64,000 nt of DNA from an uncultured Clostridium sp. GTDB taxonomy: Bacteria; Bacillota; Clostridia; TANB77; CAG-508. The notes under the pieces were generated by a model. That model saw only the letters and a list, made by a program, of their open reading frames with translations, ran no database searches and was not told where the DNA came from. Position numbers and translations under genes: made by a program. The stretch's first letter is position 1. Each line of letters begins with the position of its first letter. Shown in pieces: positions 2,675-28,227 of this stretch. The stretch is taken from NCBI GenBank assembly GCA_902406115.1, contig CABPCL010000004.1, positions 23,995-87,994 on the forward strand, written 5' to 3'.

Positions 2675-3379
2675 GTGCCAGATACAAAATACAAAAGAGT
2701 ATTACTAAAGTTAAGCGGAGAAGCATTAGCAGGAGAAAATAAAACAGGAGTAGATTTTGAAACAGTAAATAAGATATGTGATCAAATAAAAGAACTTACA
2801 GAAATGGGAATAGAGGTAGCAATTGTTGTTGGAGGTGGAAACTTCTGGAGAGGTGCAAAAGTAAAAATGGATAGAACAACATCTGACTATATGGGAATGC
2901 TTGCTACAGCTATGAATGGATTGGCATTACAAAGTGCATTAGAAGAAAAAGGTGTATATACAAGATTACAAACAGCTATAGAAATGAAAGAAATTGCAGA
3001 ACCATACATAAAAAGGAGAGCAACCAGACACCTAGAAAAAGGAAGAGTTGTAATATTTGGATGTGGAACAGGTAATCCATATTTTACAACAGATACTGCA
3101 GCCGCACTAAGAGCAGCTGAAATTGGTGCAGAAGTAATTCTTGTAGGAAAAACAATCGATGGAGTATATTCAGCAGATCCAAAACAAGATGAAAGCGCTG
3201 TAAAATATGATCAAATAAGTTACTTAGATATTTTAAGCAAAGATTTAAAAGTAATGGATTCGACAGCCATCTCATTATGCAAAGATAATAATATTGAACT
3301 TATACTATTTGAGCTTGCTAAGCCAGATAATATTATAAAAGCAGTTAAAGGTGAAAAAGTAGGTACTTTAATTAAATAG
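2675..3379 (+). CDS. pyrH: UMP kinase
   Basis: [13 protein letters not shown]-terminus and full-length similarity to PyrH; GTG start at 2675 with AAGGAG RBS 9 nt upstream (ORF track start 2666 is an upstream GTG). Confidence 0.92.
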
Positions 3380-3749
3380 CAAATAAGTTATAAATTATAT
3401 ATTTAATTATTATTTTAAGATTATTATTTTGAAAGTAGTATCTTTGATTAATTTTTTTATAAAACTATTTTTAAATTATTATTATAAGACCATTTTTTAA
3501 TTATTATTTTCGCAATTTTGCGCAGTTTGCTGATTCAAAGAATCAGCAGTAAAAAATAAGAAAATAATAATTAAAAAATAAAGATAATAAATAAGAATAA
3601 TAAATAGGAATTAAAAAACAAGAATAAAAAAATAATAATAAAAATGAGAGTAAAATATGAGCAAAAATAAGAAGTTTAGTAATTTAATAAATTTAATAAT
3701 AAAATTATAAAGTAATATCAAAATTGAAAAATTTTAGGAGGAAATTAAA

Positions 3750-4298
3750 ATGGAATATAATAAAATTGAAGAGAAAATGACAAAAACAATAAGTGTATTT
3801 GAGGAAAATTTATCAGAAATAAGAGCAGGAAGAGCAAACCCTGCAATATTAAATAAGGTTATGATTGACTATTATGGAACACCAACACCAATAAATCAAG
3901 TAGCGGGAATTTCTGTACCTGAAGCAAGAATGATAGTAATTCAACCATGGGATGCAAGTATATTAAAAGACATAGAAAAAGAAATATTAAAATCTGACAT
4001 AGGAATTAACCCTAATAACGATGGAAAAGTAATAAGACTAGCATTTCCTGAATTAAATGAAGAAAGAAGAAAAGAAATTGTAAAAGATATTAGAAAGATG
4101 GCAGAAGAAGCAAAAGTTGCAATAAGAAGTATTAGAAGAGATGGAATAGATGAGGCAAAAACTATGCAAAAGAATTCAGAGATATCAGAAGACGATTTAA
4201 AAGTTGCAGAAGAAAAAATTCAAAAATTAACAGATAAATATGTAGAAAACATAGACAAAATATTAGAAACAAAAGAAAAAGAAGTTATGAGTATATAA
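3750..4298 (+). CDS. frr: ribosome recycling factor
   Basis: 182 aa; VRAGRANPAILNKV motif; AGGAGG RBS 8 nt upstream. Confidence 0.93.
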   Translation: MEYNKIEEKMTKTISVFEENLSEIRAGRANPAILNKVMIDYYGTPTPINQVAGISVPEARMIVIQPWDASILKDIEKEILKSDIGINPNNDGKVIRLAFPELNEERRKEIVKDIRKMAEEAKVAIRSIRRDGIDEAKTMQKNSEISEDDLKVAEEKIQKLTDKYVENIDKILETKEKEVMSI

Positions 4299-24662: not shown

Positions 24663-25286
24663 TTAAAGCAAAGTAATTTTATTTTTTGTTTTCTTAATTA
24701 TTTTCTCATCTTTTAATCTTTTAATTTCTCGCATCATAGCTGTTCTATCGATAATTAAATAATCAGATAGGTCAGTTAATGAAAACGGAAGTTCAAAGGT
24801 TTTACTATTATTTTTAATTGATAAATTATTAAAATATGTTAAAAGCTTTTCTCTTACACTTTTATTTGTCAATAGTAGCATCCTAAAGTTTTGCTCTGCA
24901 ATACTATGTAAGATTAAATCAGGCAAATTCCTCAATAGATCAATATGATAAGAACAATCTAAAGTGCAACGCTCTGCAGTATCATAAGGATAAAATAACA
25001 CTTTAGCTTTTTTATTTGCTAAAACAAACAACTCTCTATCCATATATATTTTGAATAAAGCTTCACCAAAAATATCATTCTTTTTATAATAATAAAGAAT
25101 TTTTTTATTTCCATCTTTATCGTATGTAATTAATTGTGCTTCACCTTCTAACAATATACAGAATTGATTTCTTTTTGTTAAGAAAGTAGTAATTACTTCA
25201 TTTGCTTGAAATTCTTTAGTTTCACATAATCTACAATTTGTCTTCAATTTGTTAACGAAATTGTCAACATCAAAATTCTTTTTCAT
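24663..25286 (-). CDS. Crp/Fnr-family transcriptional regulator (FNR-like, Cys-rich)
   Basis: cNMP-binding beta-roll plus C-terminal HTH (LTDLSDYLIIDRTAMMREIKRLKDEKII); Cys at CRLC, QFC and CTLDC; start at MKKNFDV (25286) preferred over track start 25334, which lies inside an operator palindrome. Confidence 0.8.
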   Translation of the reverse strand: MKKNFDVDNFVNKLKTNCRLCETKEFQANEVITTFLTKRNQFCILLEGEAQLITYDKDGNKKILYYYKKNDIFGEALFKIYMDRELFVLANKKAKVLFYPYDTAERCTLDCSYHIDLLRNLPDLILHSIAEQNFRMLLLTNKSVREKLLTYFNNLSIKNNSKTFELPFSLTDLSDYLIIDRTAMMREIKRLKDEKIIKKTKNKITLL

Positions 25287-25321
25287 AAAAAACCACCATA
25301 TTAATAATATATCACAAAATA

Positions 25322-25335
25322 GTTGCCATGGCAAC
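25322..25335. promoter_or_regulatory. GTTGC-N4-GCAAC palindrome (candidate Crp/Fnr operator, autoregulatory position)
   Basis: gttgccatggcaac, perfect 5-4-5 inverted repeat 36 bp upstream of the regulator start. Confidence 0.5.
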
Positions 25336-25464
25336 AGACAAAAAATAAAATATTGTTTTATTCAGCTATTTCTATGATAAAAAACTTGTAACAAAATTGT
25401 AATAAAAGATTTTTTACTAGAGATATGAGGGAAAAGAGAAAAAAATAAAATAAAAAACAAATTT

Positions 25465-25478
25465 GTTGCATTTGCAAC
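25465..25478. promoter_or_regulatory. GTTGC-N4-GCAAC palindrome upstream of nrdD (candidate class-II activator site)
   Basis: gttgcatttgcaac, perfect 5-4-5 inverted repeat centred about 29 bp upstream of a TATAAT at 25500-25505, i.e. near -41 of a putative +1. Confidence 0.5.
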
Positions 25479-25540
25479 AGAAAATAAATATAGTTACGAT
25501 ATAATTAAAACATAAGAATTGAGGGGGAGGATTATTAGAA

Positions 25541-27700
25541 ATGAAAATCATAAAAAGAGACGGAACAATTGTTGATTATAATTCAGATAAAATAAGAATT
25601 GCAATTGGTAAAGCTAATAATGAAGTTTCTAGAAAAGAAAAGGCTTCAGATGAACAAATAAATGAAATAATAGGATATATTGAAGATTTAAAGAAATCAA
25701 GAATATTAGTAGAAGACATACAAGATATAATTGAACAAAAATTGATGGAATTAAATAAATACCAATTAGCAAAAAAATATATTACATATCGTTATACAAG
25801 AGAATTAGTTAGAAAAGCAAATACAACAGATCAATCTATTAAAGAATTAATTGAAGGAGAGAGTGAATACTGGAATAACGAAAATTCTAATAAAAACGCA
25901 ACTGTAGTTACAACACAAAGAGATTATTTAGCTGGTATTACAAGTACAGATATTACCAGAAGATTTTTATTACCAGAAGATATTGTAAAAGCACATGACG
26001 AAGGAATAATTCATTTTCATGATGCCGACTATTTTGCACAAAATGCATTACATAACTGCGATTTAATTAACTTAGAAGATATGTTACAAAATGGAACAAA
26101 TATTAATGGCGTTATGATCGAAAAACCTCATAAATTCTTAACTGCAATGACTATTGCTACTCAGATAATTACTGCAGTAACATCTAGTCAATATGGTGGG
26201 GCAACAGTTACAATGACACATCTTGCTCCATTTGTAAGAGATAGTTACAACTTTTATTTAAAAAGATATAAAAATAGAAATTTATCACAAGAGCAATGTG
26301 AAAAGTTTGCAAAAGAAGATTTAGCAAAAGAAATAAAAGATGGAGTTCAAACATTCCAGTACCAAATTAATTCAATGACTACAACAAATGGTCAATCACC
26401 ATTTTTAAGTGTTTGTTTTTATTTGGGTGAAACAAAAGAGTATAAAGAAGAATTAGCAATGATTATAAAAGAATTCTTAGAGCAAAGAATCCAAGGAATG
26501 AAAAACGAGAAGGGTGTATATATTACTCCTGCTTTCCCAAAATTGTTATATGTATTAGAGGAAGACAATATACATAAAGATAGTAAGTATTGGTATTTGA
26601 CAGAGCTTGCTGCAAAATGTACAGCTAAGAGAATGGTACCTGATTATATTTCTGAAAAGAAAATGCTAGAGTTGAAAGTAGATAAGGATGGAAATGGAAA
26701 TTGTTATCCTTGTATGGGATGCCGATCATTCTTAACACCTTATATTGATCCTAAAACAAATAAACCTAAATATTATGGAAGATTTAACCAAGGTGTTGTA
26801 ACAATAAATCTAGTTGATGTTGCATTATCATCAGGAAAAAATATAGATAAATTCTGGAAGATTTATGAAGAAAGACTAGAGTTATGTCATAGAGCATTAC
26901 AAAAAAGACATGAGAGATTAGCAAAAGCAACAAGTGATGTTGCACCTATATTGTGGCAACATGGTGCTTTGGCAAGACTAAAAAAAGGTGAGAGTATACA
27001 CCCATTATTACATGGTGGATATTCAACAATATCATTAGGTTATGCAGGTCTTTATGAGTGCGTAAAATATATGACAGGGCATAGCCATACTGATAATGGC
27101 GCAGGTAAAGAATTTGCAGTTGAAGTTATGCAAAAAATGGACGATAAATGTAAAGAGTGGAAAGAAAAAGAGGATATTGACTATAGTGTATATGGAACTC
27201 CAATAGAATCAACAACATACAAATTTGCAAAATGTTTAAAAGATAGATTTGGAATTGTAAAAGGTATAACAGATAGAAATTACATTACAAATTCTTATCA
27301 TGTACCAGTATTTGAAGAAATCGATGCTTTCTCTAAATTGAAATTAGAAAGTGAATTCCAAAAATTAAGTCCAGGTGGTGCAATTTCTTATGTTGAAACA
27401 CCTAACCTACAAAATAACTTGGAAGTTGTTATACAAATAATTCAATTTATTTATGACAATATAATGTATGCAGAATTAAACACAAAATCTGATTATTGCC
27501 AACAATGTGGATATGACGGAGAAATATTAATTGATGATAACCTAGAATGGTATTGTCCAAATTGCGGAAATAGAGATCATAATACATTAAATGTTGCTAG
27601 AAGAACTTGCGGATATATAGGAAGCAATTTCTGGAATAAAGGAAGAACACAAGAAATAAAAGAAAGAGTGCTTCACATTGACAATAAAGATGATGAATAA
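25541..27700 (+). CDS. nrdD: anaerobic ribonucleoside-triphosphate reductase (class III, glycyl radical)
   Basis: 719 aa; ATP-cone N-terminus; C-terminal Zn ribbon (CQQCGY...CPNCGN) and glycyl-radical motif RRTCGYIGS. Confidence 0.93.
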   Translation: MKIIKRDGTIVDYNSDKIRIAIGKANNEVSRKEKASDEQINEIIGYIEDLKKSRILVEDIQDIIEQKLMELNKYQLAKKYITYRYTRELVRKANTTDQSIKELIEGESEYWNNENSNKNATVVTTQRDYLAGITSTDITRRFLLPEDIVKAHDEGIIHFHDADYFAQNALHNCDLINLEDMLQNGTNINGVMIEKPHKFLTAMTIATQIITAVTSSQYGGATVTMTHLAPFVRDSYNFYLKRYKNRNLSQEQCEKFAKEDLAKEIKDGVQTFQYQINSMTTTNGQSPFLSVCFYLGETKEYKEELAMIIKEFLEQRIQGMKNEKGVYITPAFPKLLYVLEEDNIHKDSKYWYLTELAAKCTAKRMVPDYISEKKMLELKVDKDGNGNCYPCMGCRSFLTPYIDPKTNKPKYYGRFNQGVVTINLVDVALSSGKNIDKFWKIYEERLELCHRALQKRHERLAKATSDVAPILWQHGALARLKKGESIHPLLHGGYSTISLGYAGLYECVKYMTGHSHTDNGAGKEFAVEVMQKMDDKCKEWKEKEDIDYSVYGTPIESTTYKFAKCLKDRFGIVKGITDRNYITNSYHVPVFEEIDAFSKLKLESEFQKLSPGGAISYVETPNLQNNLEVVIQIIQFIYDNIMYAELNTKSDYCQQCGYDGEILIDDNLEWYCPNCGNRDHNTLNVARRTCGYIGSNFWNKGRTQEIKERVLHIDNKDDE

Positions 27701-27723
27701 AATAATGTAAGAAGGAATTGACT

Positions 27724-28227
27724 ATGAGATACAATAAGATTAGAAAAATGGATATTTCAGATGGACCTGGTGTAAGAGTATCAATTTTTATGCAAGGGTG
27801 CACATTTAATTGCAAAAATTGTTTTAATCCAGAAACACATGATTTTAATGGTGGAAAAGAATTCACAGATTCTACTATCAACAGAGTTTTAGAATTATGT
27901 GATAATGAAAATGTAGAAGGCTTATCTATTTTAGGAGGAGAACCAATGAATCCTAAAAATATAGAAGGAACTACAAGATTAGCAAAGGCTTTTAAGGAAA
28001 AGTTTCCAAATAAAAATATATGGGCATGGTCTGGTTTTAAATTTGACAGAGACTTAAAAGATAAGGAAGTCCTAAAATATATAGATGTATTAGTAGATGG
28101 ACAATATGTTGATGCTCTTCATGATCCTACATTAGATTGGAGAGGATCTTCTAATCAAAGAGTTATAAATGTTCAAGAAAGTTTAAAAGAACATAAAGTT
28201 GTTTTAAAAGAAAAAGGCTTAATATAG
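27724..28227 (+). CDS. nrdG: anaerobic RNR activating protein (radical SAM)
   Basis: CTFNCKNC Cx3Cx2C motif; about 167 aa; immediately downstream of nrdD. Confidence 0.9.
   Translation: MRYNKIRKMDISDGPGVRVSIFMQGCTFNCKNCFNPETHDFNGGKEFTDSTINRVLELCDNENVEGLSILGGEPMNPKNIEGTTRLAKAFKEKFPNKNIWAWSGFKFDRDLKDKEVLKYIDVLVDGQYVDALHDPTLDWRGSSNQRVINVQESLKEHKVVLKEKGLI

Follow-up and report, generated by a model that had tools for sequence, protein, structure and literature searches.

A predicted regulatory circuit for anaerobic ribonucleotide reductase in uncultured gut Clostridia, comprising a divergent Crp/Fnr-type regulator and two GTTGC-N4-GCAAC palindromes

The 64,000-nucleotide (nt) stretch of DNA analyzed here (the window), from contig CABPCL010000004.1 of an uncultured Clostridium sp., carries a gene for a Crp/Fnr-type regulator that diverges from nrdD and nrdG, which encode the anaerobic (class III) ribonucleotide reductase and its activase. 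The gap between the regulator gene and nrdD-nrdG is 254 base pairs (bp) long and contains two copies of one palindrome, GTTGC-N4-GCAAC, which we call site 1 and site 2. From the anatomy, conservation and spacing of these elements we infer that the regulator binds both copies, and we further infer the direction of its effect at each promoter, its cofactor, and the signal that it reads, including the sign of that signal. Taken as a whole, at a probability of roughly 0.7, the evidence favors a regulator that is local and dedicated, represents a branch of the Crp/Fnr superfamily for which we found no description, activates nrdDG from site 2, represses its own gene from site 1, and is placed under redox control by a set of cysteine and histidine residues. 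The elements on which this reading depends are given here in window positions.

24663 to 25286, minus strand: regulator gene, 207 amino acids, Crp/Fnr superfamily, with the Pfam domains cNMP_binding and HTH_Crp_2
Within 24663 to 25286, minus strand: regulator residues C18, C43, C107, C111 and H114, and the recognition helix D180-R-T-A-M-M-R-E187
25322 to 25335, no strand assigned: site 1, GTTGCCATGGCAAC, an exact GTTGC-N4-GCAAC (5-4-5) repeat, predicted autoregulatory operator
25465 to 25478, no strand assigned: site 2, GTTGCATTTGCAAC, an exact GTTGC-N4-GCAAC (5-4-5) repeat, predicted to serve nrdDG as a class II activator site
25541 to 27700, plus strand: nrdD, anaerobic (class III) ribonucleoside-triphosphate reductase (Pfam NRDD, E = 1.3e-187, with ATP-cone and Gly_radical)
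27718 to 28227, plus strand: nrdG, radical-SAM activase of NrdD (Pfam Fer4_12 and Radical_SAM)

An earlier reading of the sequence alone had described both palindromes as perfect and had placed site 1 about 36 bp upstream of the regulator start, with the first in-frame ATG inside it. Both repeats are indeed exact, and they lie 143 bp apart. Measured from its near edge, site 1 is 36 nt away from the ATG at 25286, which we assign as the start codon because every homologue in the alignment begins MK(K/R)NFDV. The remark on the first in-frame codon has to be dropped: the ATG within site 1 (25329-25327, minus strand) is out of frame, and the in-frame codon there is a TTG at 25334. Content of guanine and cytosine (G+C) is 28% in the window and 24% in related intergenic regions, and at such low values a motif with six G or C among its ten fixed positions is very unlikely to arise by chance. 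With up to one mismatch allowed, the window holds 6 matches against 0.56 expected, a number that none of 100 shuffles reached. Matches elsewhere in the window were rejected as operators; a third exact palindrome (44596-44609) lies inside coding sequence and is treated as a chance occurrence, and the one-mismatch matches at 1786, 42610 and 48121 fall in coding sequence or between convergent genes. As a separate observation, this third palindrome ends at the first of two +1 frameshifts that split a Flavoprotein-family (PF02441) gene at 44329-44900, taking it from frame 0 to 1 to 2. At each shift a surplus C stands immediately ahead of GGAAAT (ACT-C-GGAAAT close to 44609, AAC-C-GGAAAT close to 44690), and the identical context of the two points to a systematic sequencing error or else to a genuine pseudogene.

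The palindromes are conserved well beyond this genome. One genome per species was scanned, which yielded 80 loci with relatives of the regulator at 45-83% identity, all of them from uncultured gut Clostridia; the arrangement was counted as divergent where nrdD lay opposite the regulator across a gap of 50-1000 bp. By this definition the divergent pair is kept in 66 of the 80 loci. Among the 67 intergenic regions so defined (window included), two sites are found in 54, one in 12 and none in 1, and 109 of the sites are exact. The motif scan covered 64 kb of this genome and flanks of about 8 kb elsewhere. In the 624 kb of fetched loci there are 127 exact motifs, and all 127 lie upstream of the regulator or of nrdD: 107 fall within the 19.5 kb of defined intergenic DNA, and the other 20 stand directly upstream of one of these genes in loci with altered gene order. 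Both the conserved divergent arrangement and the concentration of the motif at promoters, which the sequence-only reading had called for as checks, are thus borne out in related loci.

In these comparisons the palindrome travels with the regulator gene and with nrdD. In three loci (L028, L030 and L031, in our numbering) nrdD lies downstream of the regulator on the same strand, and each gene retains its own site; another locus (L029) has no nrdD, and the palindrome still stands upstream of the regulator. Both sites are also kept where an nrdD of only 26% identity is paired with a regulator 75-83% identical to that of the window. Across loci L002-L020, two types of nrdD accompany regulators in this range of identity, one about 80% identical and the other the 26%-identical type (766 amino acids in L001); the reductase gene has been exchanged, and the regulator and its two operators have kept their positions. 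Locus L001 (positions 2691-3966), from a close relative, presents a further variation: a 156-amino-acid open reading frame (ORF) is inserted between nrdD and the regulator, and there are three palindromes, of which two adjoin nrdD and are 143 bp apart, as in the window, and the third lies directly upstream of the relocated regulator. The regulator promoter region has apparently been duplicated in this locus.

Conceivably, a different transcription factor, with its gene elsewhere, binds the palindromes and the Crp-type gene is a bystander, since the 5-4-5 geometry is not unique to Crp/Fnr proteins. We consider this very improbable. The motif remains upstream of the regulator even where nrdD is missing or rearranged, it follows homologues of the regulator to unrelated targets (described below), and its invariance parallels that of the recognition helix R181-(S/T)-A-M-M-R186-E187, which is the same in all 81 of 81 relatives. 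The ten fixed bases are themselves essentially invariant, and the 4-nt spacer varies (TTTT, AATT, AAAT, TATA, CATA and others); invariant half-sites around a variable spacer indicate a protein-binding site and not an RNA stem. A terminator scan did flag both palindromes on the minus strand as stems of 5-6 bp followed by a T-rich tail, and they might on that basis be taken for RNA hairpins acting as weak intrinsic terminators or attenuators. This is scarcely credible, however: the stems reach only 5-6 bp, there is no gene upstream on the minus strand for them to terminate, the half-site sequence stays the same across about 120 sites and shows no compensatory substitutions while the loop varies, and site 2 lies upstream of the predicted nrdD start and hence outside the nrdD transcript. 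Binding by the divergently encoded regulator remains the favored account of both sites, and the two promoters to which they belong are predicted as follows.

25500 to 25505, plus strand: TATAAT, predicted to be the -10 hexamer for nrdDG and located 21 nt past site 2
25306 to 25314, minus strand: predicted extended -10 element TGaTATATT of the regulator promoter, from a promoter scan

On the nrdD side, the center of site 2 lies 28.5 nt upstream of the start of TATAAT, at about -41, the class II activator position that the sequence-only reading had assigned to it. The spacing recurs among relatives, with a -10 hexamer 21-22 nt past the site in 52 of 61 regions (TATAAT in 44 of them). Upstream of this hexamer there is no -35 element; the window promoter has ACAGAA at 17-bp spacing, and the hexamer at the canonical 17-bp spacing matches the -35 at 0-2 of 6 positions in 56 of the 61 regions. 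A dimer site near -41.5 standing in place of the -35 is what defines a class II activator promoter, and the nrdD side has this arrangement, with the transcription start placed from the -10. A promoter that has neither a -35 nor an extended -10 normally needs an activator. The regulator side is built differently: a -10 hexamer lies exactly 10 nt past the site in 56 of 59 regions, and the half-site TTGCxx doubles as a -35 with 3-5 of 6 matches. In the window the regulator promoter reads TTGCCA-17-TGaTATATT on the minus strand, from 25334 to 25306, and the TTGCCA that serves as its -35 (25334-25329) lies within site 1. The center of site 1 would accordingly be near -29.5, overlapping both the -35 and the spacer. 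The transcription starts implied by the two -10 boxes are predicted at about 25512 for nrdD and about 25299 for the regulator. A dimer bound at this position must exclude RNA polymerase, so negative autoregulation is predicted, in agreement with the autoregulatory role suggested earlier for this site.

In the mechanism that we propose, a dimer of the regulator would bind GTTGC-N4-GCAAC by way of the recognition helix R181-(S/T)-A-M-M-R186-E187. At site 2 (about -41, with a good -10 and no -35), it would recruit RNA polymerase and activate nrdDG in class II fashion; at site 1 (about -29.5), it would shut off its own transcription. The same regulator and the same sites could also be imagined to repress nrdDG as well, with derepression once a signal inactivates the protein: site 2 covers about -48 to -35, which is also a possible repressor position, and the protein is already predicted to act as a repressor at site 1. 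We judge such a circuit improbable, because the nrdD promoters are without a -35 while the regulator promoters have one, and because the distance of 21-22 nt is held across very different genomes and three unrelated types of target, which fits a contact between protein and polymerase. Activation of nrdDG from site 2 is therefore retained here as the more credible role.

The regulator that might otherwise be expected at this locus is NrdR. Strict gut anaerobes need the oxygen-sensitive class III reductase for their DNA precursors, and its regulation has mostly been ascribed to NrdR, which resembles the present case in that many bacteria place their ribonucleotide reductase operons, nrdDG among them, under its control. 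NrdR is, however, an unrelated protein (a zinc ribbon with an ATP-cone) and recognizes unrelated, tandem 16-bp boxes. Scored against the box consensus acaCwAtATaTwGtgt, the region 25287-25540 has no NrdR-like box, the best match being 12 of 16 positions in AT-rich sequence; the absence of such a box ahead of nrdD had been remarked on before and holds. No nrdR gene was found within the 64-kb window, and a k-mer analysis of the 67 regions returned no other conserved element of the NrdR-box kind. The nrdD leader also shows no riboswitch in an Rfam scan of the window, in which RNase P RNA (bacterial class A, 39617-39965, 282 bits) was the sole family recovered.

The assignment of the regulator to the Crp/Fnr superfamily is well supported. 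Its Pfam scores exceed the cutoffs for PF00027 (37.5 bits; cutoff 27.5) and PF13545 (27.4 bits; cutoff 27), and an AlphaFold model with a mean pLDDT of 79.7 has an N-terminal helix, a beta-strand roll, a long helix at 114-140 and a helix-turn-helix. The beta-roll, long dimerization helix and Crp-type helix-turn-helix that characterize the superfamily are thus all present. Placement within the superfamily is more difficult. Foldseek gives a probability of 1.00 to CprK, NtcA, Clr, FNR, HcpR and CRP alike, at 14-20% identity, and the fold search therefore cannot discriminate among such matches as CprK, NtcA, FNR, HcpR and CRP. The NCBIfam models for CRP, FixK, FnrL and Fnr all score far below threshold, which means that no curated family covers the regulator, and a sequence search of the PDB reaches only distant relatives, led by Lmo0753 (E = 8.7e-06) and followed by CprK and CRP.

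An alignment with Escherichia coli FNR spans only the DNA-binding domain and leaves the sensor domains unaligned, so that the cysteines of the regulator cannot be equated with those of FNR; in this alignment, T182 stands at the position of FNR E209, and R181 at that of CRP R180. Identity with FNR proper was rejected, as the FNR cysteine motif, the E-x-x-S-R helix and the TTGAT-N4-ATCAA box are all absent. In FNR, C-x2-C-x5-C and a fourth Cys equivalent to C122 provide the ligands of an oxygen-labile [4Fe-4S] cluster that controls dimerization; here, the sole conserved N-terminal cysteine is C18. A Bacillus-type Fnr, which would carry a cluster of three cysteines at its C-terminus, was rejected as well; the sequence closes with ...KTKNKITLL (residue 207) and has no cysteine there. 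The idea of a dedicated FNR-type activator, as first put forward, consequently stands in its main points: there is a local Crp-type regulator with class II geometry, but it is not FNR proper. It is FNR-like in its mode of action and not in its family membership.

The same mixture of agreement and revision applies to the candidate sensor. The sequence-only reading had drawn attention to cysteines at CxxC, QFC and CxxxC as compatible with an iron-sulfur (Fe-S) sensor, and all of these are present in the window protein, as C18-x2-C21, Q41-F42-C43 and C107-x3-C111. C18, C43, C107 and C111 are invariant in the window clade (80 or 81 of 81 sequences); C21, however, is present in only 7 of 81 relatives, and H114 had been missed. 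For the wider family, an exhaustive profile search was grouped at 50% identity, which gave 61 clusters at E <= 1e-30 and 1587 at E <= 1e-10, and the sensor positions were counted on 123 full-length cluster representatives. The helix D-R-S-A-M-M-R-E is widely kept among these 123, even among those less than 50% identical to one another. C18, C107 and C111 are all present in 80 of the 123 and all absent in 34 (Fisher p = 7e-22, with phylogeny ignored), and H114 joins C107 and C111 in 80 of 83 representatives. A further cysteine seems to shift between two places: position 94 is mostly Cys and position 43 Gly in the wider family, whereas the window clade shows the reverse, an unchanging C43 together with variation at position 94, where the window protein has Ala.

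In the structural model, the N-terminal helix ends in C18, and C107-x3-C111-x2-H114 stands where the long dimerization helix begins. We read C18, C107, C111 and H114 as a putative Cys3His site, for an Fe-S cluster or zinc, with a mobile accessory cysteine at C43 or C94. The probable role of this site is to carry an Fe-S cluster or to react through its thiols. It would lie where FNR and FLP-type sensors have their redox-active cysteines. In the proposed mechanism, the activity of the regulator would most likely be set by C18, C107, C111 and H114 (C43 or C94 being accessory) at the junction of the N-terminal helix and the dimerization helix, and nrdDG expression would, through an Fe-S cluster or thiol chemistry, track oxygen or redox status.

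The gene neighborhoods of more distant relatives bear on the nature of this signal. Contigs were found for eleven diverse Cys-bearing members of the branch, which share about 30-40% identity with the window protein. Four diverge from nrdD, accompanied by nrdG and/or dut (L083, L088, L090, L091), and five diverge from flavodiiron-protein operons (L082, L085, L086, L087, L089), which also encode rubredoxin or a fusion of acyl-CoA dehydrogenase, electron-transfer flavoprotein and rubredoxin. One diverges from rubrerythrin (L081), and one (L084) has no obvious partner gene; hcp does not appear in any of these 11 annotated loci. In all ten loci scanned (every one but L084), the intergenic region contains a single TGT(T/G)GC-N4-GCAACA palindrome, and in most of the ten this shared palindrome lies 21-22 nt from the -10 of the target and, on the other strand, 9-10 nt from the -10 of the regulator. 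On this evidence the module of one palindrome, a target predicted to be activated and a regulator predicted to repress itself is ancestral, and the window clade has split the single palindrome into two sites 143 bp apart. The glycyl radical of NrdD is destroyed by oxygen. As NrdD is inactivated by oxygen and the other targets reduce O2 or its products, the neighborhoods support an oxygen or redox signal.

These neighborhoods also weigh on a different account of the sensor, in which the operators work as proposed but the Cys3His set is a structural zinc site, and the signal is a small molecule in the pocket of the cyclic-nucleotide type, for example a nucleotide that reports demand for deoxynucleoside triphosphates. 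A cNMP_binding domain is detected, G74-E75 together with an R or K at position 84 resembles the phosphate-binding cassette of CRP, and roughly a quarter of the wider family is without all of the cysteines yet retains the recognition helix. The arginine at position 84 is not strictly conserved, however, and the neighbors across the wider family are nearly all related to oxygen (NrdD, flavodiiron protein, rubredoxin and rubrerythrin). We regard a small-molecule signal as rather unlikely and prefer redox control by the Cys/His set.

The sign of such redox control is a more delicate matter. If the oxidized regulator were the active form, with a sign opposite to that of FNR, it might bind TGTTGC-N4-GCAACA and induce O2-reductases (flavodiiron protein, rubredoxin and rubrerythrin) and, in lineages like that of the window, the synthesis of replacement NrdD as well. 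We offer this as a tentative and rather doubtful extension of the circuit. Were it true, nrdDG would belong to an oxygen-induced repair regulon in strict anaerobes and not to one induced by anaerobiosis, and the window regulator would be the founding example of a widespread, unrecognized Cys3His branch in Clostridia and related Firmicutes.

Several points weigh against the circuit as we prefer to read it. The sign of the signal is ambiguous, in that activation of O2-reductases suggests a regulator activated by oxidant and the analogy with FNR one activated by anoxia. The Cys3His site could be a structural zinc site, and the test for co-occurrence of its cysteines takes no account of shared ancestry. 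The position near -41 rests on predicted -10 boxes. Finally, the regulon may have members beyond the scanned window and the flanks of about 8 kb.

Comparison with known systems helps to place the circuit. FNR of E. coli is a global regulator that represses its own gene; the ligands of its cluster are C20, C23, C29 and C122, its recognition helix contains E-x-x-S-R, and its box is TTGAT-N4-ATCAA. As a Crp/Fnr dimer with a cysteine-based sensor that activates nrdDG through two 5-4-5 palindromes, it is the closest functional precedent. The window regulator, by contrast, looks local, has C18, C107, C111 and H114 as its candidate sensor residues, carries the helix R-(S/T)-A-M-M-R-E, and is paired with GTTGC-N4-GCAAC. 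At E. coli nrdDG, FNR sites are found at -33.5 and -64.5 (PMC10425943), whereas here one site serves nrdD and the other the promoter of the regulator itself.

HcpR2 offers a second parallel, as a local Crp/Fnr regulator of Clostridia and other anaerobes that sits beside a redox-stress target, and its 5-4-5 box shares the outer GT and inner C of the half-site. This regulator has the box GTAAC-N4-GTTAC, the target hcp-frdX and a proline at the CRP E181 position (Rodionov et al. 2005, PMC1274295), and changes of the CRP-181 residue accompany changes of motif (Rodionov et al., PMC1274295). The window branch has Ser or Thr at the CRP-181 position and targets nrdD or O2-reductases. Membership in HcpR2 was rejected on these grounds: the neighbors differ, the box differs at 2 of 5 half-site positions, and the residue is Ser/Thr, not Pro. 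FLP of Lactobacillus casei and CprK of Desulfitobacterium are likewise Gram-positive members of the Crp/Fnr superfamily, and CprK is among the best sequence and fold matches. The activity of these two depends on a pair of disulfide-forming cysteines, close to the N-terminus and close to the end of the sensor domain, and not on a Cys3His site; their DNA boxes and targets differ from those of the window regulator.

For the O2-reductases of clostridia, the regulators on record are PerR, sigma-B, Rex and OseR, the last of the Spx type (PMC11481553); none of them is a Crp/Fnr protein. OseR of C. difficile was considered as a match and rejected as a member of the Spx/YusI family, and the Zur motif of Desulfovibrio, ATGCAAC-N3-GTTGCAT (PMC545781), was rejected for its different geometry. 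Neither the motif nor such a regulator was found described in the searchable literature, which does not extend to subscription-only papers or RegPrecise; within that reach, the half-site is, as had been supposed, previously unreported.

The design of the circuit is ordinary. What is gained is an operator and a set of candidate sensor residues for a large, uncharacterized branch, in the form of a concrete and testable circuit (regulator, 14-bp operator, promoter geometry and sensor residues) conserved in hundreds of uncultured Clostridia. The Cys3His site may represent a new redox-sensor design on the Crp fold. The family would link anaerobic ribonucleotide reduction to the oxygen defense provided by flavodiiron protein, rubredoxin and rubrerythrin in gut Clostridia, and the operator is directly usable for regulon prediction in metagenome-assembled genomes.

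The intergenic region contains one more conserved element, between the two palindromes.

25387 to 25403, plus strand: direct repeat TGTAAC-aaaat-TGTAAT, with an 11-bp period, between sites 1 and 2

In an alignment of 15 intergenic regions this repeat forms a conserved island in the middle of the region, with the form TGTAAY-N5-TGTAAY and 2-4 copies. It is found in about 55 of the 67 regions, always in the orientation of nrdD; 60 copies lie inside intergenic regions and 13 outside, and most of these 13 adjoin nrdD, including in loci where nrdD is downstream of the regulator. Counted back from site 2, the copy nearest to it begins at a distance of 58, 68 or 78 nt, a series that corresponds to helical phasing. 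The window repeat fits the WalR-type consensus TGTWAH-N5-TGTWAH (PMC9210968) exactly and, more broadly, the kind of site used by OmpR-family response regulators, one of which probably binds it. It is absent from the nrdD loci of the wider regulator branch, which marks it as a lineage-specific second input. The circuit would accordingly include, some 70-80 nt upstream of site 2, TGTAAY repeats through which a response regulator, probably of the OmpR family, acts on nrdD in this lineage.

The same repeat recurs elsewhere in the window. At 52990-53028 there are four head-to-tail copies of TGTAAT with an 11-bp period, about 80 nt upstream of the extended -10 element, TGgTATAAT (~53104-53112), of an ABC exporter gene (53178-54896); this similarity suggests that nrdD and the exporter may share a response-regulator input. 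An OmpR-family response regulator is encoded at 57180-57851, and it is a possible candidate for the protein that binds the TGTAAY repeats. Its gene opens a cluster at 57180-61867 in which it is followed by a small histidine kinase (57848-58870), an ORF the size of an ABC ATPase (59134-59775) and a 704-amino-acid FtsX-type permease (59753-61867), a layout typical of peptide-antibiotic sensing modules.

Two minor elements of the divergent region, both read from the sequence, complete its annotation.

25293 to 25297, minus strand: GGTGG, ribosome-binding site for the regulator, 6 nt ahead of its ATG at 25286
25521 to 25530, plus strand: ribosome-binding site GAGGGGGAGG of nrdD

Farther along the window, a MatE/polysaccharide-synthesis membrane domain and a cytidylate-kinase-like domain (PF13189) share a single ORF of 591 amino acids at 47776-49551; this unusual fusion begins with TTG and may represent two genes or a mis-set start. 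At 55160-57069, a gene for a Y-family DNA polymerase (impB/mucB/samB domains) precedes a YolD-like gene and overlaps it by 1 nt, and the two form a translesion-synthesis pair.

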